Source: Capsulimonadaceae bacterium
GTDB lineage: Bacteria > Armatimonadota > Armatimonadia > Armatimonadales > Capsulimonadaceae
Direction: 5' to 3'
Assembly: GCA_965215505.1 (NCBI GenBank)
Contig: OZ244065.1
Span: 4,256,001-4,320,000, forward strand
Length of the DNA stretch: 64,000 nt
Numbering within the stretch: position 1 is the stretch's first letter; each line of letters begins with the position of its first letter. A model generated the notes under the pieces. That model worked only from the letters and a program-made list of their open reading frames with translations, was not told the DNA's origin and made no database searches. Positions 9,466 through 18,591 of the stretch are shown one piece after another. The translations under genes and the position numbers were made by a program.

Positions 9466-9697
9466 GTTTTGTAGCCGGACTGTTGTGTTTGCCCTGGGCC
9501 TTCACCAGTGACGAGTAGAGCAGGAAGTGCTTCCATCGTAGCACGCCCCCGCTTGCTTGTCAAGCAGTTCGCCTCAGACACCAGGGCCACCCCCGAGAAG
9601 AGGGGCAACCACAGGGGGCTGCCCCTACCGATGGCGGAGGGGTTCACTTCAGGGCCTGCCCTCCCCTGCTTTCCCCCTAACCCCCCCGCCCCCGCCT

Positions 9698-9706
9698 GCC
9701 GACAAT
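9698..9706 (+). promoter_or_regulatory. GCCGACAAT motif, sigma28-like -10 element
   Basis: Identical 9-mer also at 16802, 26099 and 32109, each shortly upstream of a start codon. Confidence 0.45.
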
Positions 9707-9729
9707 CACCGGAGAGGCTTTACGTTTTC

Positions 9730-12162
9730 ATGCGGACACTGCCGGCCGGCGCACAACTCTATCTCCTCGCCACCTATTTCGCCGCCCTGCTCACGGCCGG
9801 GTGGGCCGCCGTCACGCCCCCGCCGGAGGCCCACGCGCGCGGCTGGGAGGTGGCCCTGTTCCTGGCCCTGGCGATCCTCGCCTACGGCAAGAAGATCACC
9901 CTGCTCCGGCACACGGGCGACAAGGACGCCGGCTCGCTGTCGCTCGGCTTCGCCATCACCTTCGCCGCCCTGCTGCGCTTCGGCCCGCAGGGTGCCCTGG
10001 TCGTCGGCACCCTGGGCTGCCTGTCGGCGTGCCTGCATCCCCGCCGCCAGCCGGGATACCAGTTCGCCTTCAACGTCTCGGTCGCCGCCGTCGCCACCTG
10101 GCTGTCGGGCCTGACCTTCCTCGCCCTGAACGGCGGCCTGACTTTCGGCCTGCGCCGGACCCTGCTCGCCGCCGCCGCCGCGAGCCTCCTCTACTACGCG
10201 GTCAACAACGTCGCGACGGCCGCCGTGATCGCGCTCTGCACCGGCCAGAGGGTGGTCACGGTCTGGCGCGAGAGTTTCCTGTGGACCGCGCCCGGCTACT
10301 TCGCCGGGGGGGCCATCGGGACGGTCGGGGCGCTGGCCTGCGGCAGCGGCGACTGGCCGCTGCTGCTGGTGCTGACCCCCGTGGCCTACCTGACCTACTC
10401 GGCCTATGCCGTCTACGCCGGCCGGGCGGCGGAGCGGCAGAGCCACATCGAGAGCCTGGCCGACCTGTACCTGGGCACCATCCGCAGCCTCGCCGTCGCT
10501 ATCGACGCCAAGGACCAGCGCTCCCACCAGCACATCGTCCGCGTCCAGCGGTCGGCCGTCGCCACCGCCCGGCACATGGGCCTGAGCGCAGATCTGGTGG
10601 AAGCGGTCAACACGGGCACGCTGCTCAAGGACATCGGCAAGCTGGGCGTCCCGGACTACGTCCTGCTGAAAACGGGCGAGCTGACCGGCGAAGAGTTCGC
10701 CAAGATCCGGAAGCACCCCGAGGTCGGCGCGGCCATCCTCGAAGGGGTCGTCTTCCCCTGGCCGGTCCTGCCGGTCGTCCGGTCGCACCACGAGCGGTGG
10801 GACGGGACCGGCTACCCGGACGGGTTGAAGGGCGAGCAGATCCCGCTGACGGCGCGGATACTGGCCGTCGCCGACGTCTACGACGCCCTGACCTCCTCGC
10901 GCGCCCACCGGGGGGCCTGGAGCCGCGAGGGGGCATTGGCGGAGATCCAGCGCCAGGCGGGCGCCCACTTCGACCCCGCCGTCGTCGCCGCCTTCACCGC
11001 CGTGATCGGCGGCCTGGCCGAAGAAGCGCCCGAGGCCGCTCCGCCCGAGGCCGCCGCGCCGGGGGGCGGAATCGTAAGCTCCGGGGACGCGGTCCGCCAG
11101 ATCCAGCGGGCCTCCTCGGAACTTTGGGCGCTCTACGAGGTCGCGCAGACGCTGTCATCCAGTCTCGGCCTGCAAGAGACTCTGGAAATTTTAGGCCGCA
11201 AGCTCGAAGCCATCCTGCCGGGCACCGCCTGCCTCTTTCTGCTGCGCGAGGGGGCCGAGGACGCCCTGGTGGCGCGCGTGGCCGTCGGACTGAACGGCGA
11301 CCGGCTGCGCGGCGCGCGGGCGAACGGGCTGGCGAGCCGCTCCCTCCAGGCCGCGACCGGCCGCGAGACCTATCGTGGCCCCTACGACGCGGATGACCTC
11401 TGCCTGCCGGACACGCTTGCGGGCTCGTGGGAGCCGCTGCGGGCCGCCCTGATCGTCCCCATCGTCCATGCGGGCGAGGTACTGGGCACGGTCAACCTCT
11501 ACCACCCGGACGCGGACGCCTTCGGGCCGCACGACCAGCAGCTCCTGGAGACCATCGCCGAGCGGGCCGCGCTGGCCCTCTACAACGGCCTGCTGTTCGA
11601 CCGGACCCGGTCGCACGCGAACACCGACGGGCTGACGGGCCTGTACAACCTGCGCTACCTGACTCAGCAGGTGGACGCGCTCTGCCTCGGGGCCGAGCCG
11701 CTGGCCCTGCTCTGCCTGGACCTGGACAGCTTCAAGCCGATCAACGACAACTTCGGCCACCAGAAGGGCGACCAGGTGCTGTGCGACCTGGCCGAGATCT
11801 TCTGCGGGGCGGTCCGCGACTCGGACATCGTCGCGCGCTACGGCGGCGACGAGTTCCTGGTCGTCCTGCGCGGGGCGGGCGCGGCCGAGGCGCAGGCGAT
11901 GTCCCAGCGCCTGCTGGAAGCCGTCTCCGCCTACGACCCCGGCCTGGCGCACCCGACGTTGGGCCGCCTCCGGGTGGGCGTCTCCATCGGGTGGGGCTGC
12001 GCCCCCGCCGACGGCCGGGACTGCACCGCCCTGCTGGCCGCCGCCGACGCCCGGATGTACCGCGAGAAGACCCAGCGCAAGCTGGGCGCGCGGGCCGAGC
12101 CGAGGCGGGACGGCCCGGCCGACCCGGACGTGCCCCTGCTGAGGCTCGTGGACGCGGCCTAG
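9730..12162 (+). CDS. Multi-TM membrane sensor (MASE9-like) + HD-GYP + GAF + GGDEF protein
   Basis: About 7-8 hydrophobic segments; LLKDIGK (HD changed to KD), HHERWDGTGYP, RILAVADVYDAL; GAF; DLDSFKPINDNFGHQKGD, RDSD I-site, YGGDEF. Confidence 0.9.
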   Translation: MRTLPAGAQLYLLATYFAALLTAGWAAVTPPPEAHARGWEVALFLALAILAYGKKITLLRHTGDKDAGSLSLGFAITFAALLRFGPQGALVVGTLGCLSACLHPRRQPGYQFAFNVSVAAVATWLSGLTFLALNGGLTFGLRRTLLAAAAASLLYYAVNNVATAAVIALCTGQRVVTVWRESFLWTAPGYFAGGAIGTVGALACGSGDWPLLLVLTPVAYLTYSAYAVYAGRAAERQSHIESLADLYLGTIRSLAVAIDAKDQRSHQHIVRVQRSAVATARHMGLSADLVEAVNTGTLLKDIGKLGVPDYVLLKTGELTGEEFAKIRKHPEVGAAILEGVVFPWPVLPVVRSHHERWDGTGYPDGLKGEQIPLTARILAVADVYDALTSSRAHRGAWSREGALAEIQRQAGAHFDPAVVAAFTAVIGGLAEEAPEAAPPEAAAPGGGIVSSGDAVRQIQRASSELWALYEVAQTLSSSLGLQETLEILGRKLEAILPGTACLFLLREGAEDALVARVAVGLNGDRLRGARANGLASRSLQAATGRETYRGPYDADDLCLPDTLAGSWEPLRAALIVPIVHAGEVLGTVNLYHPDADAFGPHDQQLLETIAERAALALYNGLLFDRTRSHANTDGLTGLYNLRYLTQQVDALCLGAEPLALLCLDLDSFKPINDNFGHQKGDQVLCDLAEIFCGAVRDSDIVARYGGDEFLVVLRGAGAAEAQAMSQRLLEAVSAYDPGLAHPTLGRLRVGVSIGWGCAPADGRDCTALLAAADARMYREKTQRKLGARAEPRRDGPADPDVPLLRLVDAA

Positions 12163-12192: not shown

Positions 12193-12231
12193 TTTTCCCG
12201 CACTTCTTCTTTTCCCGCACTTCTTTCAGTG
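12193..12231 (+). promoter_or_regulatory. Direct-repeat operator-like element (TTTTCCCGCACT x2 + TCAGTG), copy 1
   Basis: Conserved at the same position upstream of all three S8 genes, about 20 nt before a -10-like hexamer. Confidence 0.6.
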
Positions 12232-12275
12232 ATGCTCGCCTGCTGCCCCCCCAATAATCAAGCGTAGACGATCCC

Positions 12276-12375
12276 CGCCCCCGAACAGGGCAAACCGGCC
12301 GCGAGGCCGGGACGCAAAGCCTTCGGGTCTGTGTAAATCCCAACACGCGCAGATGGCCGGGCCGCCGAACGGGCG
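12276..12375 (+). ncRNA. c-di-GMP-I (GEMM-I) riboswitch aptamer, G20 type
   Basis: ACAGGGCAAACC-GGCC-GCGA-GGCC-GGGACGCAAAGCC...GGCCGGGCCGCCGAA; P1 CGCCC/GGGCG; matches the Vc2 layout. Confidence 0.9.
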
Positions 12376-12413
12376 ACACGCTTCCTCGGGCCGGGGCCGT
12401 CTGACACCATCCT

Positions 12414-12529
12414 TCGCAGGCGACAAGAGCAAACCGCGCGAAAGCGTGGGACGCAAAGCCACGGGCCTTATTCTTCAGCCGTCCCTAGGAACAGTACCGA
12501 AGAATGGCCGCCGGGCCACCGAGCAGCGA
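12414..12529 (+). ncRNA. GEMM-I riboswitch aptamer, A20 variant (3',3'-cGAMP/GEMM-Ib-like)
   Basis: ACAAGAGCAAACC-GCGC-GAAA-GCGT-GGGACGCAAAGCCACGGGCC...GCCGGGCCACCGA; A at 12428 occupies the Vc2 G20 position. Confidence 0.85.
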
Positions 12530-12549
12530 CGATTCCGAGGGACCTTCTT

Positions 12550-14352
12550 ATGCTTAACAAGATCAACCGAAACGTGATCAACCGGACTTCTTGGAGGGCG
12601 CCGGCGCTGGCCGCCCTGTCCGTGGGCCTGGCCGCCGCCCACGCCTCCCCGGCCCCGAACACAGCACACCACCCCTCCGGGGGGGCGCGCGCGGCCTCCC
12701 GCCCGGCGGCCTCCACGCCCGTCATCCTGAAACTCGCGCCGGGGGGTCTGACGCCCGCCCGGCAGGCCGCGCTCGCCCGGCTCGGGGCGGGCGTGACGCG
12801 CCACCTGGGCTTCATCGGCTCGGTCGCCGTCACCGTCCCGAGCCGGAACCTGGCCCGCGTCGCCGCCCTGCCGTTCGTCACGCACGTCTCCTGTGACGGC
12901 CAGGTCCACAAGTGCGACGAGTTCACGGTCGCCGCGAGCGGGGCGGGGGCGGCCTACCAGCAGTACGGGCTGACCGGGCAGGGCGTCACCGTCGCCGTCG
13001 TGGACAGCGGCGTCCAGTGCAACCACTGGGATCTGCTGGATGCCAACGGGGACGGCAACTCGCGGGTAATCGGCTACGCGGATTTTGTCCCGAGTACGAA
13101 TGGCCCCAAGCTTTACTCCGACTATTGCGGCCACGGCTCGCACGTCGCCGGCATCATCGCCGGCAACGGCGCGGCCTCCACCGGCAGCCAGTGTACCCAC
13201 ACCTACTACGGCATCGCCCGCAACGCCAGCCTCGTCAACGTGCGCGTGCTGGACCAGAACGGCGCGGGCAGCGTCAGCACCGTCCTCGCCGGCATCCAGT
13301 GGGTGGTGGCCCACAAGAACGACAACCGGAGAGCGCCGATCCGCGTGCTGAACCTGTCGCTGGGGCACCCCGTCGGCGAGAGCTACACCACCGACCCGCT
13401 CTGCCAGGCCGTCGAGGCCGCCTGGAAGGCCGGCATCGTCGTCGTCTGCGCCGCCGGCAACGCCGGCCGCGTCTCCAACACCGTGGCCGCGGGCCAGTCC
13501 AACGAGGGCTACGGCACAGCCTACGGCTCCATCCAGTCTCCGGGCAACGACCCCTACGTCATCACCGTCGGCGCGACCAAGAGCGTGGACGGCAGCCGCT
13601 GGCACGACAGGGTCGCCACCTATTCCAGCCGGGGGCCGAGCCGCCTGGACCTGGTGCTGAAGCCCGACATCATCGCGCCGGGCAACCAGGTCATCTCGCT
13701 GGACGTGGACTGGGCCACGCTCAACGCCGCCTATGGGGGCACCAACATGCTCCCCTACAGCGCCTACACCACGGCGGCGGCGTCCGGGGCTGCCGGCACG
13801 CTGGGGGCCGCCAACCGGGCGGGAGCGGGGATGTCCGACGCCTACTTCCGCCTGTCGGGCACTTCCATGGCCGCGCCCGTCGTGGCAGGGGCGGCGGCCC
13901 TGCTGCTCCAGGCGAACCCGCGGCTCTCGCCGGACACGGTGAAGGCCCGCCTGATGGTCTCCGCCGACAAATGGGGCGCACCCGACTGGCGGGGGAACCC
14001 GACAGGGCAGGCGGACCCCTGCACCTACGGGGCTGGGTATCTGAACATCCCCGCCGCGATCCAGAGCAGCGTCTTCGCCGGCCAGTCCGCCCTCAGCCCC
14101 ACGCTGACGGAGGACGGCAGCGGCAACGTCGCCATCAACGCCTCGGGCATCATGTCCGCCTCGCACGTCATCTGGGGCAGCACCGGTGTCAATGATCTGC
14201 ACGTCATCTGGGGGACGAATGCGATCTCGGGCAGCAGCGCGCTGTCGGCCTCGCACGTCATCTGGGGCAGCAGCGTCTTCTCCGACCACGTCATCTGGGG
14301 CACCAGCACCAGTGCCGTGGACCTCTCCTCGGTCGCCATCAACGGCGAGTAA
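12550..14352 (+). CDS. Secreted S8 subtilisin-like (AprX-like) serine protease 1 with C-terminal HVIWG repeats
   Basis: Signal peptide, pro-domain, VAVVDSG / GHGSHVAG / SGTSMAAP triad; HVIWG x4. Confidence 0.93.
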   Translation: MLNKINRNVINRTSWRAPALAALSVGLAAAHASPAPNTAHHPSGGARAASRPAASTPVILKLAPGGLTPARQAALARLGAGVTRHLGFIGSVAVTVPSRNLARVAALPFVTHVSCDGQVHKCDEFTVAASGAGAAYQQYGLTGQGVTVAVVDSGVQCNHWDLLDANGDGNSRVIGYADFVPSTNGPKLYSDYCGHGSHVAGIIAGNGAASTGSQCTHTYYGIARNASLVNVRVLDQNGAGSVSTVLAGIQWVVAHKNDNRRAPIRVLNLSLGHPVGESYTTDPLCQAVEAAWKAGIVVVCAAGNAGRVSNTVAAGQSNEGYGTAYGSIQSPGNDPYVITVGATKSVDGSRWHDRVATYSSRGPSRLDLVLKPDIIAPGNQVISLDVDWATLNAAYGGTNMLPYSAYTTAAASGAAGTLGAANRAGAGMSDAYFRLSGTSMAAPVVAGAAALLLQANPRLSPDTVKARLMVSADKWGAPDWRGNPTGQADPCTYGAGYLNIPAAIQSSVFAGQSALSPTLTEDGSGNVAINASGIMSASHVIWGSTGVNDLHVIWGTNAISGSSALSASHVIWGSSVFSDHVIWGTSTSAVDLSSVAINGE

Positions 14353-14389: not shown

Positions 14390-14440
14390 GCCCGCCGCAT
14401 GCACAATCCTTCACCCATGGAGGCGCAGGCGGCGGGCTTT
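14390..14440 (+). terminator. Conserved hairpin / intrinsic terminator after S8 gene 1
   Basis: GCCCGCCGC...GCGGCGGGC + TTT; homologous copies follow S8 genes 2 and 3. Confidence 0.65.
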
Positions 14441-14457
14441 CCCTTTTCCCGCCCCCC

Positions 14458-14498
14458 TTTTCCCGCACTTCGTTTCTTTTCCCGCACTTCTCTCAGTG
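14458..14498 (+). promoter_or_regulatory. Direct-repeat operator-like element, copy 2
   Basis: TTTTCCCGCACT at 14458 and 14477, TCAGTG, then CATAAT at 14518. Confidence 0.6.
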
Positions 14499-14540
14499 GC
14501 CGCCCTGCTCCAGACGGCATAATCAAGCGTAGATGGTTTC

Positions 14541-14639
14541 CGCCCCCGATCCGGGCAAACCGGCCGCGAGGCCGGGACGCAAAGCCACGGGCCTCCGCAA
14601 ATCTCAACACGCGGAGGCGGCCGGGCCGCCGAACGGGCG
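14541..14639 (+). ncRNA. c-di-GMP-I riboswitch aptamer, G20 type (second locus)
   Basis: CCGGGCAAACCGGCCGCGAGGCCGGGACGCAAAGCCACGGGCCTCC...GGAGGCGGCCGGGCCGCCGAA; P1 CGCCC/GGGCG. Confidence 0.9.
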
Positions 14640-14679
14640 ACACACTCCTTCGGGCCACGGGACCACCTGACCGCATCCT

Positions 14680-14782
14680 TCGCGAGCGACAAGAGCATAC
14701 CCGGCGAAAGCCGGGGGCGCAAAGCCACGGGCCTTCTTCTTCAGCAGTATCGGGGAATGGCCGCCGAGCTACCGAGCGGCGA
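14680..14782 (+). ncRNA. GEMM-I riboswitch aptamer, A20 variant (second locus)
   Basis: ACAAGAGCATACCCGGCGAAAGCCGGGGGCGCAAAGCCACGGGCC...GCCGAGCTACCGA; A at 14694 in the G20 position. Confidence 0.82.
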
Positions 14783-14801: not shown

Positions 14802-16661
14802 ATGAAACACCGAAAAACGTCCCGAGAAACATCCCGAGAAACATCCCGAAAGGCACCCGCAGTAGCCGCCTTCTGCCTCGGATTGGCCGGCGCTCTCGGG
14901 ACCGTCACACCAGCACATGCGGGTACGCCCCCTGCACCGCACCTCCGCGCCGAAGCCGACTCCTTCTTTGTCCAGACCCTGGCCGACAGGCCCGCGTCGG
15001 GCCGCGCCCCCGTCATCGTGAAGCTCGCGCTGGGGGGTCTGACGCCCGCCCGGCAGGCCGCGCTCGCCCGGCTCGGGGCGGGCGTGACGCGCCACCTGGG
15101 CTTCATCGGCTCGGTCGCCGTCACCGTGCCGGACCGCAATCTGGACCGGCTGGCCGCCCTGCCGTTCGTGTCGCACCTGTCCGTGGACGGCCAGGTCCAC
15201 AAGTGCGACGAGTTCACCTGCGCCTCCAGTGGGGCCGACACCGCCTACCAGCAGTACGGGCTGACCGGGGCGGGCGTCACCGTCGCCGTCGTGGACAGCG
15301 GCATCACTTCTTCAAGGGATTTGAACGGCAACTCCTGGAATGCGGGCGGCAACTCCCGGAACGGTCGCCTTCAGGGGGCGGTCAGCTTCGTTCCGGGCGA
15401 CTCCAGCACGGACGACGCCTGCGGGCACGGCTCCCATGTCGCCGGCATCATCGCCGGGAACGGCTCCAACTCTTCGGGCTTCGGATATTCGCACACCTAC
15501 TACGGCGCGGCGCGGAATGCCAGCCTGGTGAACGTGCGCGTGCTGGACCAGTACGGCATGGGCAGCGTCAGCACGGTGCTGGCGGGCATCCAGTGGGTGG
15601 TGGCCCACAAGAACGATAACGCGAACGCGCCGATCCGGGTCTTGAACCTGTCTCTGGGGCATCCTGTGGGCGAGAGCTACAAGACCGACCCGCTCTGCCA
15701 GGCCGTCGAGGCCGCCTACCGGGCGGGCATCGTCGTCGTCTGCGCCGCAGGCAACGGCGGGCGGGCGAGCCTCTGGAACACAGCGGGCGCGGCTAATGAG
15801 GGGTGGGGGACGGCCTACGGCTCCATCAACTCGCCCGGCAACGACCCCTATGTCATCACGGTGGGTGCGACCAAGAGCAACGACGGCGTCCGCGTCCATG
15901 ACACCATCGCCACCTATTCCAGCCGGGGGCCGAGCCGCCTGGACCTGGTGCTGAAGCCCGACATCATCGCGCCCGGCAACAAGGTCATCTCCGTCTGCTC
16001 CAACGGCAGCACCCTCGACACCTATGCGGGCGGCACCAATGACATCCCCATGTCTACCTACTCCCGGTTTCCCATGCCCATGACTTCGTGGAACTACTTC
16101 CGTTTGTCGGGCACTTCCATGGCCGCGCCCGTCGTGGCGGGGGCGGCGGCCCTGCTGCTCCAGGCTAGCCCGAACCTGACGCCCGACACCGTCAAGGCTC
16201 GCCTGATGGTCGCCGCCGACAAGTGGGCCGCCCCCGCCGCCAGCGGTACGCCGACCGGCCTGGCCGACCCATGCACCTACGGGGCGGGCTACCTCAACAT
16301 CCCCGCCGCCCTCGCCAGCACGGTGACGGCGTCCGCGCCCGCCCTCAGCCCCACGCTGACCTACGACGCCAAAGGCAACGTGAGTATCGTCGCTTCGAGC
16401 ATGACTTCGGCCTCGCACGTCATCTGGGGCACCAGCGCCGTCAACGACCTGCACGTCATTTGGGGGACCAGCGCCATTTCGGGCAGCAGCACACTGGCGG
16501 CCTCGCACGTCATCTGGGGGACCAGCGTTTTCACCAACACCACCACCTGGGCGTTCAGCACCGGCGCTGCGGACCTCTCCGCTTCCGCCCTCTACGGCGA
16601 GGGGGCCGCCGTCCAGGCCTTCCAGGCGAATGCCTGCCCCGCGCCGGCAAGCGCGAATTAA
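14802..16661 (+). CDS. Secreted S8 serine protease 2 with HVIWG repeats
   Basis: SD GAGGGA then ATG 14802; D/H/S triad motifs; HVIWG x3 plus TTTWA; short extension after ...LYGE. Confidence 0.93.
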   Translation: MKHRKTSRETSRETSRKAPAVAAFCLGLAGALGTVTPAHAGTPPAPHLRAEADSFFVQTLADRPASGRAPVIVKLALGGLTPARQAALARLGAGVTRHLGFIGSVAVTVPDRNLDRLAALPFVSHLSVDGQVHKCDEFTCASSGADTAYQQYGLTGAGVTVAVVDSGITSSRDLNGNSWNAGGNSRNGRLQGAVSFVPGDSSTDDACGHGSHVAGIIAGNGSNSSGFGYSHTYYGAARNASLVNVRVLDQYGMGSVSTVLAGIQWVVAHKNDNANAPIRVLNLSLGHPVGESYKTDPLCQAVEAAYRAGIVVVCAAGNGGRASLWNTAGAANEGWGTAYGSINSPGNDPYVITVGATKSNDGVRVHDTIATYSSRGPSRLDLVLKPDIIAPGNKVISVCSNGSTLDTYAGGTNDIPMSTYSRFPMPMTSWNYFRLSGTSMAAPVVAGAAALLLQASPNLTPDTVKARLMVAADKWAAPAASGTPTGLADPCTYGAGYLNIPAALASTVTASAPALSPTLTYDAKGNVSIVASSMTSASHVIWGTSAVNDLHVIWGTSAISGSSTLAASHVIWGTSVFTNTTTWAFSTGAADLSASALYGEGAAVQAFQANACPAPASAN

Positions 16662-16815: not shown

Positions 16816-18591
16816 ATGAGGAAGTCGTCTCCGAGACGACCACCAGGAAGAAGCCATGCTGAACCAAAAAAATCGACAACAATGCGCCCGGAAGCGCCCA
16901 TCCTTGCCGCACTCTCCCTTGGCCTGGTCAGTGCCTTACTGACCGGCCCGGCGGCTCAAGCGGACGCGCCCGCCGCGAAGGCCGACACCGCCCGGCTCCT
17001 GGCCGCCGGGCCGACAGCGGCCCGCGCCCCCGTCATCGTGAAGCTCGCGCCGGGGGGTCTGACGCCCGCCCGGCAGGCCGCGCTCGCCCGGCTCGGGGCG
17101 GGCGTGACGCGCCACCTGGGCTTCATCGGCTCGGTCGCCGTCACCGTGCCGGACCGCAATCTGGACCGGCTGGCCGCCCTGCCGTTCGTGTCGCACCTGT
17201 CCGTGGACGGCCAGGTCCACAAGTGCGACGAGTTCACGGTCGCCGCGAGCGGGGCGGGGGCGGCCTACCAGCAGTACGGGCTGACCGGGCAGGGCGTCAC
17301 CGTCGCCGTCGTGGACAGCGGCGTCCGCAGCAACGCCGACCTGCGGACGCCGGGGTCCGGGAAGCCGCAGCTCCTCGCCTCGCAGAGCTTCATCCCCGGC
17401 GACACCAGCACGGACGACGCCTGCGGGCACGGCACCCACATCGCCGGCATCGTCGCCGGCAACGGCGCGGCCTCTACGGGCAGCCAGTACACCCACACCT
17501 ACTACGGCATCGCCCGGCAGGCCAATCTGGTGAGCGCACGCGTGCTGGACAAGAACGGCGCGGGCAGCGTCAGCACGGTAGTGGCTGGCATCGGGTGGGT
17601 CGTCGCTAACAAGGCGAAATACGGCGTCCGCGTCCTGAACCTGTCGCTGGGGCACCCGGTCGGCGAGAGCTACACCACCGACCCGCTCTGCCAGGCCGTC
17701 GAGGCCGCCTGGAAGGCCGGCATCGTCGTCGTCTGCGCCGCCGGCAACGCCGGGCGGGCCGGTGCCACCAACACAGCGGGCGCGGCCAACGAGGGGTGGG
17801 GGACGGCCTACGGCTCCATCCAGTCTCCGGGCAACGACCCCTACGTCATCACCGTCGGCGCGACCAAGAGCGTGGACGGGAACCGCTGGGACGACAGGGT
17901 CGCTACCTACTCCAGCCGGGGGCCGAGCCGCCTGGACCTGGTGCTGAAGCCCGACATCATCGCGCCCGGCAACCAGGTCATCTCGACGTACTCCTACGGG
18001 AGCATGCTTTTCAACTACAACGTCGCGAACAACAACAGCCTGCCGATACAGACCTACTCGAAGACGGCCTGGAACGGCTATTCCACCGACTACTTCCGTC
18101 TGTCGGGCACTTCCATGGCCGCGCCCGTCGTGGCGGGGGCGGCGGCCCTGCTGCTCCAGGCCAGCCCGAACCTGTCGCCCGACACCGTCAAGGCCCGCCT
18201 GATGATCTCCGCCGACAAGTGGGCCGCCCCCGACGGCACCGGCGACCCCCTCACCTACGGGGCGGGCTACCTCGACATCCCCGCCGCCATCGCAAGCACC
18301 GCGACGGCGAGCCTGCCCGCCCTCAGCCCCGCGTTGACGCTCAACAATGACGGCACCGCCTCCCTCGTCATGGACCGGGCCACCTGGGGCTCCAGCCTGT
18401 GGGGGACCGGCATCACCGACCTGCGGGCCACCTGGGGCAGCTCGGTCAGCGCGGACCGCGCGACCTGGGGCAGCGCCGCGCTGGTCATGGACCGGGCCAC
18501 CTGGGGCAGCAGCGTGTGGGGCGACCGGGCCACCTGGGGCAGCAGCACCGACGCCGTGGATCTCTCCTCGGTCGTCATCAACGGCGAGTGA
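16816..18591 (+). CDS. Secreted S8 serine protease 3 with RATWG repeats (start ambiguous)
   Basis: VAVVDSG / GHGTHIAG / SGTSMAAP; RATWG x5 plus SLWG and SVWG; ends DLSSVVINGE. Confidence 0.9.
   Translation: MRKSSPRRPPGRSHAEPKKSTTMRPEAPILAALSLGLVSALLTGPAAQADAPAAKADTARLLAAGPTAARAPVIVKLAPGGLTPARQAALARLGAGVTRHLGFIGSVAVTVPDRNLDRLAALPFVSHLSVDGQVHKCDEFTVAASGAGAAYQQYGLTGQGVTVAVVDSGVRSNADLRTPGSGKPQLLASQSFIPGDTSTDDACGHGTHIAGIVAGNGAASTGSQYTHTYYGIARQANLVSARVLDKNGAGSVSTVVAGIGWVVANKAKYGVRVLNLSLGHPVGESYTTDPLCQAVEAAWKAGIVVVCAAGNAGRAGATNTAGAANEGWGTAYGSIQSPGNDPYVITVGATKSVDGNRWDDRVATYSSRGPSRLDLVLKPDIIAPGNQVISTYSYGSMLFNYNVANNNSLPIQTYSKTAWNGYSTDYFRLSGTSMAAPVVAGAAALLLQASPNLSPDTVKARLMISADKWAAPDGTGDPLTYGAGYLDIPAAIASTATASLPALSPALTLNNDGTASLVMDRATWGSSLWGTGITDLRATWGSSVSADRATWGSAALVMDRATWGSSVWGDRATWGSSTDAVDLSSVVINGE

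Follow-up and report, generated by a model that had tools for sequence, protein, structure and literature searches.

A tandem GEMM-I leader with unlike bases at position 20 upstream of secreted S8 peptidase genes in a Capsulimonadaceae bacterium

In a Capsulimonadaceae bacterium (Armatimonadota), a gene that encodes a secreted subtilisin-like S8 peptidase has two complete GEMM-I aptamers in its 5' leader, of the class that includes the cyclic di-GMP-I (c-di-GMP-I) riboswitches, and the two differ at a base that touches the ligand, the upstream aptamer having G and the downstream aptamer A at the site equivalent to position 20 of the Vc2 riboswitch. The leader lies in a stretch of 64,000 nucleotides (nt), positions 4,256,001 to 4,320,000 of contig OZ244065.1 in assembly GCA_965215505.1, which is called the window here and whose first letter is position 1 of all coordinates that carry no prefix. 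No other type of tandem riboswitch is as common as the c-di-GMP-I tandem, whose copies are usually regarded as equal and as sharpening a response. In the leader described here the copies differ systematically at the ligand-touching base; only the copy that probably gates translation carries the change, which has arisen repeatedly across a bacterial order. Tandem c-di-GMP-I riboswitches are known; a heterotypic GEMM-I tandem with a translational platform appears to be new. With moderate confidence we read this tandem as controlling the secreted peptidase, with both aptamers reading c-di-GMP and the A at position 20 (A20) making the translation-coupled aptamer the weaker and more reversible sensor; the identity of the ligand, the ON direction of the switch and the difference in affinity are what we infer, and they are weighed below against other readings.

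Two complete aptamers with different pockets

The whole window was scanned with Rfam cmscan, and RF01051 was rerun alone with its cut-off of 35 bits. Four GEMM-I matches exceed the gathering score, all on the + strand and forming two tandem pairs. The pair in question consists of 12280–12370 (60.7 bits, E-value 7e-12) and 12419–12524 (61.7 bits, E-value 4e-12); under RF01051 alone its members score 57.5 and 62.7 bits along the full length of the model (1–87), and all four window aptamers stand at least 20 bits over the cut-off. By the covariance model (RF01051; P1, P2 with a GNRA loop, and P3), both members of the pair belong to the GEMM-I/c-di-GMP-I class. An earlier note on this DNA, which had called for such a scan, claimed two aptamers of this class in one leader, with G at 12289 and A at 12428, and Rfam together with a reading of the letters bears this out to the base; the limits it gave, 12276–12542, run from the start of the P1 extension of aptamer 1 to the end of the Shine-Dalgarno (SD) region. 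The elements of the leader and its paralogue, all on the + strand, are as follows.

12276–12375, + strand: aptamer 1, GEMM-I with G20, including its P1 extension; Rfam core 12280–12370; cmscan 57.5–60.7 bits
12276–12280 and 12371–12375, + strand: P1 extension of aptamer 1, CGCCC/GGGCG, by sequence reading; kept in 4/4 leaders
12376–12409, + strand: linker between the aptamers; contains a second anti-SD-like stretch, TTCCTCGG; no intrinsic terminator
12382–12389, + strand: the second anti-SD-like stretch TTCCTCGG, an 8-bp complement of CCGAGGGA at 12535–12542
12410–12416, + strand: anti-SD TCCTTCG, pairs with 12536–12542
12414–12417 and 12526–12529, + strand: P1 extension of aptamer 2, TCGC/GCGA, by alignment pairing
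12419–12524, + strand: aptamer 2, GEMM-I with A20; cmscan 61.7–62.7 bits; long insertion in P3; compensatory changes in P2 between the two window leaders
12536–12542, + strand: SD region CGAGGGA, separated by 7 nt from the ATG at 12550
12550–14352, + strand: regulated gene, secreted subtilisin-like S8 peptidase of 600 amino acids; open reading frame, Pfam PF00082, E-value 7e-47
14544–14777, + strand: paralogous tandem leader, 87% identical; aptamers 14544–14633 (G20 at 14554) and 14685–14777 (A20 at 14694)
14802–16661, + strand: second S8 peptidase, behind the paralogous leader; Pfam PF00082

Position 20 of Vc2 is unpaired and immediately precedes, on the 5' side, the G-C pair with which P2 begins; it was located by setting the sequence against the Rfam alignment, with the numbering checked against PMC6140456. 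It corresponds to G12289 in aptamer 1 and A12428 in aptamer 2, and to G14554 and A14694 in the upstream and downstream aptamers of the paralogous leader. The equivalents of A47 are A12316 and A12455, those of C92 are C12365 and C12519, the earlier note having likewise seen C92 kept in both aptamers, and both A47 (ACGC-A-AAGC) and C92 (the C preceding the 3' strand of P1) are intact in all four window aptamers. Aptamer 1 thus has the full G20/A47/C92 pocket, whereas aptamer 2 combines A47 and C92 with A20. The letters A20 and C92 are those of GEMM-Ib, and they occur in aptamer 2 and in the second aptamers of the other three tandem leaders of the genome; that A at this site is a mark of the Geobacter GEMM-Ib class, as the earlier note had said, agrees with the published descriptions (PMC6140456, PMC6456294).

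The best-scoring model for three of the four window matches (12280–12370, 12419–12524 and 14685–14777) is RF03167, named c-di-GMP-I-GGC, the consensus of which has G at the A47 site (GACGCGAAG vs GACGCAAAG). To judge from the two Rfam consensus lines, the name would refer to G replacing A47. All four window aptamers carry A instead, and all 11 aptamers of the genome read ACGCAAAGC, without the variant base of RF03167. Going by these letters, the higher RF03167 score reflects overall similarity and not the variant base, and the aptamers are ordinary GEMM-I at the A47 site. As a point for annotation, an automatic procedure would mislabel A47 aptamers of this G+C-rich lineage as the GGC variant, with RF03167 outscoring RF01051.

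A translational platform behind the second aptamer

Only aptamer 2 has an identifiable expression platform. It is flanked on the 5' side by (A)TCCTTCGC and on the 3' side by GCGACGATTCCGAGGGA, followed by 7 nt and the ATG, an arrangement that is conserved from genus to order. Because TCG is shared on the 5' side, the anti-SD:SD helix and the P1 extension are mutually exclusive. Comparison across 53 sequences finds the anti-SD:SD helix paired in 93.5% of 371 cells, against 49–64% with slid partners; three of its seven pairs have changed on both sides, as in the leaders of relative G032 (ACCTTCG/CGGAGGT), and its covariation score is reached by 0/500 shuffles. For the P1 extension of aptamer 2, pairing holds in 91.6% of 251 cells, compared with 9–62% for slid partners, but its covariation is no better than that of shuffles, 129/500 of which reach it.

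The minimum-free-energy fold of the aptamer-2 region without ligand includes the anti-SD:SD helix, and forcing the P1 extension together with a free SD costs 3.7 kcal/mol in the leader in question and 8.5 kcal/mol in the paralogous leader, both of which are well within what nanomolar ligand binding can pay. The unconstrained fold of the whole leader was uninformative. A truth table of partition functions, in which a bound aptamer was represented as unavailable for other pairing, was computed for 44 of 45 leaders, the remaining one having no start codon found. The median probability that the SD is unpaired was 0.07 with neither aptamer sequestered, 0.06 with aptamer 1, 0.35 with aptamer 2 and 0.31 with both, and on this model aptamer 2 is probably a translational ON switch. 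Terminator-like sites number zero on the + strand of either window leader.

The mechanism that these features suggest would run as follows. Without ligand, TCCTTCG on the 5' side of aptamer 2 would pair with the SD CGAGGGA and keep it closed; once ligand had closed P1 together with the TCGC/GCGA extension, the anti-SD would have lost three of its bases to that extension, the SD would be freed and translation would turn ON. The A20 of aptamer 2 would be a natural version of the Vc2 G20A mutation and, by analogy with the aptamers measured elsewhere, would lower the affinity for c-di-GMP from picomolar to tens-of-nanomolar and make binding reversible. A high-affinity first sensor followed by a lower-affinity, equilibrium-type second sensor might then provide a second threshold or a wider response range, and a switch that re-equilibrates on the full-length mRNA would be poorly served by picomolar, very slowly dissociating binding.

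Position 20 across the genome and in relatives

The genome, a single 6.18-Mb contig with 66.5% G+C, contains 11 GEMM-I aptamers, arranged as four tandem pairs and three singles. All four tandems have G20 first and A20 second, all three singles have G20, and each of the four tandem leaders precedes a paralogous secreted S8 peptidase gene. The other two tandems lie near 3.92 Mb on the minus strand, likewise before S8 peptidase paralogues, and because a paralogue of the HD-GYP/GGDEF gene that lies upstream of the window leader (described below) is found near them, the module is duplicated as a whole. The second copy (G000:C1:3917700-3930300 on the same contig, minus strand) comprises the HD-GYP/GGDEF gene o3927684_3930221 and two S8 genes, both of which are preceded by a G20/A20 tandem. 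All four leaders go back to a single ancestor, and the count of four out of four therefore stands for one retained event and not for four independent ones.

Two further leaders of this genome have features of their own. The fourth tandem leader (G000:C1 ~3920360-3920450) has three head-to-tail copies of a 14-nt C-rich unit, CCACATCAACCAAG, between its aptamers, a G-poor stretch that by its composition could be a Rho-loading site. The single aptamer S3 (G000:C1:3295768-3295904) has G20 and a long P2 insertion and stands before a 108-amino-acid reading frame that by eye resembles the anti-sigma-28 factor FlgM.

For a wider view, 60 relatives spanning genus, family and order were sampled together with this genome, and RF01051 matched 48 of the 61 genomes. 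The counts for relatives given here concern the best 150 of 262 RF01051 matches; two rows belonging to this genome were dropped, which left 148 places in 135 regions, taken with 700-nt flanks. These regions were searched with a covariance model to which 10 of the 11 aptamers of this genome had contributed, and 187 aptamers were obtained at E <= 0.001. Position 20 was typed by its column in the covariance-model alignments, and a tandem was counted wherever two aptamers shared a strand and were separated by less than 250 nt. Among the 187 aptamers, position 20 is G in 151, C in 19, A in 9 and a gap in 8, all eight of which read as G by eye; U is found in 0/187 of these and in 0/11 of this genome. 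A47 is kept in 186/187, as is C92. The 41 tandems divide by position as follows.

First aptamers of 41 tandems in relatives: G 35, gap (reads G) 3, C 3, A 0
Second aptamers of 41 tandems in relatives: G 24, gap 0, C 9, A 8

Bases other than G are therefore found in 17/41 second aptamers and 3/41 first aptamers, and eight of the nine A20 aptamers are second in a tandem. Among the 105 single aptamers, eight are non-G (7 C, 1 A), and at least seven of these are of the second-aptamer type, with the TCCTT(C/T)GC flank and the SD platform and without a detected aptamer 1 upstream; the non-G single aptamers of G008, G010 and G032 stand directly behind the promoter-like element described below. The non-G letters are thus a property of the aptamer type that is coupled to translation, and they extend over at least two families in the order.

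Position 20 has changed repeatedly. On a FastTree phylogeny of 53 second-type aptamers with position 20 masked, a tree of short sequences with weak support, parsimony counts at least 11 changes at position 20, compared with a mean of 24 and a minimum of 15 for shuffled labels. Close orthologues may differ in the aptamer core at position 20 only, as do this genome's T3b (A) and its counterpart in G012 (G), and A20 therefore arises through one substitution without a second change in the pocket, as in the engineered bispecific mutant.

The C20 aptamers (GACAAACGCAAACC, with A47 and C92 intact; 19/187 in the relatives) are an observation in their own right. They occupy the same leader position as A20 in sister species (G003 with A vs G004 and G014 with C), and examples are L047:696-800, L047:2740-2840 and L047:5233-5334 (G008), L033:696-793 (G004) and L067:696-806 (G014). 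In the literature searched, as far as its accessible text goes, no description of natural C20 variants was found, and G20C yielded just a simulation paper; C20 in these relatives is possibly an undescribed natural pocket variant. In the protease leaders of G008 and G010 the only aptamer is a C20 aptamer of the second type, and because these leaders work with a second-type aptamer alone, the second aptamer forms the core device, to which the first is an addition.

The first aptamer and the linker

In the folding model, sequestering aptamer 1 had no consistent effect on the SD across the 44 leaders. A pyrimidine-rich linker motif, ...CTCG(T)CGGGCC...ACCAC..., recurs in many relatives, and by eye its TCGGGCC can form several pairings of 4–6 bp with aptamer strands, none of them convincing. 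In the paralogous leader, TCCTTCG stands at the place that corresponds to TTCCTCGG. A Rho-dependent site in the linker of the leader in question was considered and set aside, the linker not being G-poor.

Markers of cGAMP signalling

The earlier note had inferred from A20 that signalling by cGAMP, 3',3'-cyclic GMP-AMP, exists in this lineage, and the enzymes that would be expected to accompany such signalling were sought. In Hypr GGDEF domains, which have a GGDE[F/Y] motif, the Asp of GHxxGDxxL is replaced by Ser or Thr (GacA Ser348, equivalent to PleD D344; mapped through an alignment to PDB 6d9m and the text of PMC6456294). No Hypr GGDEF domain was found in this genome, Asp being present in 26/26 full GGDEF domains (PF00990 finds the same 26 and one fragment). 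Two candidates, with Ser and Thr nine residues after the Asn of GLxNRR, were rejected, as both have Asp at the true Hypr site. Nor was a Hypr GGDEF found in two A20-bearing relatives, G022 (Asp in 18/18) and G009 (17/17), or in a C20-bearing one, G008 (17/17), for a total of 52/52 with Asp, six regex misses having been read by eye. SMODS (PF18144) has no match in this genome, where positive controls were detected; across the sample it is sporadic (8/61 genomes), with one weak match among the seven A20-bearing genomes and none among the ten C20-bearing ones. The DncV-like domain (PF21654) also has no match in this genome, with the limit that no positive control responded for this model. HD-GYP phosphodiesterases specific for cGAMP carry Rxx(Q/N) in place of Rxx(K/R) (bioRxiv 10.1101/600031), and this signature is found by regex and by eye in none of the 20 HD-GYP domains, 19 of which have Rxx(K/R) and one no motif.

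Enzymes of c-di-GMP are abundant, in comparison, with 26 GGDEF and 20 HD-GYP domains, one such protein being encoded beside the leader. The inference of cGAMP signalling from A20 is thus unsupported, with neither Hypr GGDEF, SMODS or a DncV-like match nor a cGAMP-type HD-GYP; the earlier note had itself named a genome without a cGAMP synthase as the outcome that would speak against its reading, and such is the outcome for every known family that could be tested. Its caveat that A20 aptamers can be promiscuous turned out to be the better lead, given the affinities reported for Vc2 G20A and Cbe 1-2 (PMC6140456).

Upstream elements and neighbouring genes

Upstream of aptamer 1 lie two conserved elements, and upstream of these a gene for a signalling protein.

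9508–12162, + strand: upstream neighbour, HD-GYP + GAF + GGDEF protein; has Asp at the Hypr site and reads RAHR where Rxx(K/R) is expected
12193–12206 and 12210–12223, + strand: direct repeat, two copies of TTTTCCCGCACTTC, upstream of the promoter-like element; possible regulator site
12227–12258, + strand: promoter-like element, CAGTGA 12227–12232, 20-nt spacer, AATAAT 12253–12258; proposed from conservation

By its residues at these two sites, the neighbouring protein looks like a canonical c-di-GMP enzyme. The motif CAGTGA...(C/A)ATAAT stands 10–20 nt upstream of aptamer 1 in all four leaders of the genome and in most relatives, and a simple sigma-70 scan found no match to the sigma-70 consensus at the element; its position suggests that the transcript probably starts at about 12265. 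Both copies of TTTTCCCGCACTTC are kept in the paralogous leader (14440–14480), and a related CC(C/G)GCACTT is found upstream of leaders in relatives. The paralogous upstream region as a whole (14440–14525) repeats the TTTTCCCGCACTTC pair, CAGTGA, a spacer of ~20 nt and (C/A)ATAAT.

The peptidase encoded at 12550–14352 has, by eye, an N-terminus like a signal peptide. Among genome contigs searched for loci related to the S8 peptidase, a single distant actinobacterial MAG came up, and the nearest S8 protein clusters are commonest in Armatimonadota or Acidobacteriota. A third S8 peptidase gene (16816–18591) follows the second after a spacer of ~155 nt and without a GEMM-I aptamer. The C-termini of the S8 peptidases in the window (14100–14340 and 16400–16650) contain short HVIWG(T/S) repeats, with DRATWGS in the two 3.92-Mb paralogues, and no Pfam match covers the repeats in the window.

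Relation to known systems

Measured affinities of other GEMM-I aptamers provide the background for A20. Wild-type Vc2 binds c-di-GMP with picomolar and cGAMP with 10 µM affinity, Vc2 G20A binds c-di-GMP at 53 nM and cGAMP at 120 nM, and for the natural A20 aptamer Cbe 1-2 the values are 30 nM for c-di-GMP and 463 nM for cGAMP; P1 stability has been suggested as a further determinant of selectivity (all PMC6140456). Since Vc2 G20A and Cbe 1-2 are bispecific or prefer c-di-GMP, A20 alone is insufficient for cGAMP selectivity (PMC6140456). The engineered Vc2 G20A and Cbe 1-2 of Clostridium beijerinckii resemble aptamer 2 in that one base, A instead of G at position 20, sets their pocket apart from the ordinary GEMM-I pocket (PMC6140456); they differ from it in that their binding has been measured. 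Going by its name alone, Cbe 1-2 may itself be a second-in-tandem A20 aptamer. We know of no demonstrated cGAMP pathway in its host.

Homotypic c-di-GMP-I tandems, including the triple tandem Bc3-5 of Bacillus thuringiensis (PMC4759541), are similar in that GEMM-I aptamers stand together in the 5' leader of a gene whose product is secreted or lies at the surface, and probably share one ligand (PMC9481103). The tandem described here differs from them in that its partners are unlike at the ligand-contacting base (G20/A20), in lacking intrinsic terminators and in having an SD-sequestering platform on the second aptamer only. The survey of Sherlock et al. 2022 comprises 347 c-di-GMP-I doublets and 12 triplets, treated as one-ligand devices and, in its main text, not split by position 20 (PMC9481103). 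Its logic-gate table, likewise in the main text, has adenosylcobalamin (AdoCbl)/c-di-GMP-I and AdoCbl/c-AMP-GMP combinations and no c-di-GMP/c-AMP-GMP pair (PMC9481103), and in the portions of the literature searched, including PMC9481103 and PMC6456294, no description of a natural G20/A20 (c-di-GMP/cGAMP) tandem was found.

In Geobacter, the GEMM-Ib riboswitches (Gs1761, and the tandem before omcAHG) share the GEMM-I fold, A20 and C92 with aptamer 2, and tandems exist there too; both members of the Geobacter tandem are however GEMM-Ib, act through terminators and depend on the Hypr GGDEF enzyme GacA encoded in the genome (PMC6456294). Here, in contrast, A20 is paired with a G20 aptamer, the platform is of the translational kind, and neither a Hypr GGDEF nor a CD-NTase nor an HD-GYP of the cGAMP type was found. 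A parallel for a G/A difference between related leaders is found in Desulfobacca acetoxidans, where the GEMM-I aptamers of sister leaders (AdoCbl/c-di-GMP-I and AdoCbl/c-AMP-GMP gates) have different bases at position 20, and in-line probing showed a gain of cGAMP affinity in the A variant (PMC9481103). In that organism the G and A variants lie in separate leaders, each with a cobalamin riboswitch, whereas here they share one leader.

Weighing the readings

The reading of moderate confidence, in which both aptamers sense c-di-GMP and A20 weakens the second, faces several points that weigh against it. In this very leader the folding model does not predict opening, the probability of an unpaired SD being 0.17 with neither aptamer sequestered, 0.24 with aptamer 1, 0.17 with aptamer 2 and 0.05 with both, and the TTCCTCGG of the linker can replace the first anti-SD and keep the SD closed when aptamer 2 is sequestered. 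No output was found for aptamer 1 among those examined (terminator, SD accessibility and linker pairing), so that the two thresholds are a proposal, and the difference in affinity is borrowed by analogy from other aptamers. That 24 of the 41 second aptamers in relatives keep G20 means that the architecture does not require a weaker second sensor. The replacement of G by A or C and never by U would, from base chemistry, be equally compatible with an adenine-containing ligand, because A and C share a Watson-Crick face (an acceptor and an amino donor) that matches the Hoogsteen edge of adenine. Finally, a synthase outside the known families is conceivable, and the search for DncV-like domains had no positive control.

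These last points lead to the two-input gate that the earlier note had in mind, taken here in a form in which aptamer 1 senses c-di-GMP, aptamer 2 senses 3',3'-cGAMP or another one-adenine dinucleotide made by an unrecognised synthase, and the protease requires a combination of signals. A20 with C92 is the GEMM-Ib signature (PMC6140456), and the confinement of A20 to the second aptamer, in all four tandems here and in eight of nine A20 aptamers in relatives, looks like a division of labour. Among 53 second-type aptamers at least 11 changes have taken place at position 20, in every case to A or C, which both offer the acceptor/donor pair that would fit the adenine Hoogsteen edge, in a pocket where A47 and C92 are each fixed in 186/187; and the occurrence of Rxx(Q/N) phosphodiesterases suggests that cGAMP signalling extends beyond the known synthases (bioRxiv 10.1101/600031). 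Yet Hypr GGDEF stands at 0/26 here and 0/52 in three relatives, no SMODS or DncV-like domain was found, RxxQ/N HD-GYP is at 0/20, and SMODS in relatives does not track A20 or C20. Close orthologues moreover flip between G and A without another change in the pocket, whereas a clean exchange of ligand would be expected to travel with a synthase, and A20 aptamers without further adaptation, natural or engineered, are bispecific or prefer c-di-GMP (PMC6140456). We therefore consider the gate unlikely. The broader proposition that the A20 and C20 second aptamers read an adenine-containing cyclic dinucleotide such as 3',3'-cGAMP, with a synthase outside the Hypr GGDEF and CD-NTase families, seems to us rather improbable.

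The same flips between close orthologues might instead mean that position 20 matters little: GEMM-I affinity could so far exceed need that G20A and G20C drift in the translation-coupled aptamer and the tandem acts like the homotypic doublets, the 347 known examples of which are treated as one-ligand devices (PMC9481103), an idea that also accommodates the 24/41 second aptamers that still have G20. Drift of this kind should have affected first and single aptamers too, but non-G bases are found in 17/41 second and 3/41 first aptamers, and at least seven of the eight non-G bases among 105 singles are in aptamers of the second type; U never appears, and all four paralogous leaders keep A20 while their P2 and P3 have diverged with compensatory changes, which makes near-neutrality doubtful in our view. 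A ligand that is neither c-di-GMP nor cGAMP, as yet undescribed, might also be sensed by the A20 (or C20) aptamer 2. In other families, variant riboswitch classes are known in which one or two changes in the pocket go with a new ligand (PMC6031431), and C20 variants, for which the literature searched gave no description in its accessible text, occur at the same site in relatives. But A47, C92 and the whole fold are unchanged, A20 alone is known to keep c-di-GMP binding (PMC6140456) and the gene context gives no hint of another ligand, and we regard such a ligand as very improbable.

Implications

The consequences differ with the reading. If the variant base changes the ligand to cGAMP, the lineage must hold an unknown cGAMP synthase. 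In that case the protease leaders, as riboswitch gates with c-di-GMP and cGAMP as their two inputs, would be the first such gates found in nature and would point to that synthase, and the repeated flips from G to A or C would shift single paralogous genes between control by one signal and control by two. If, as we favour, A20 only weakens the binding of c-di-GMP, the tandem would be a design by which nature obtains two thresholds, or reversible sensing, from a single messenger, and A20 alone should not serve to infer cGAMP signalling from genomes.

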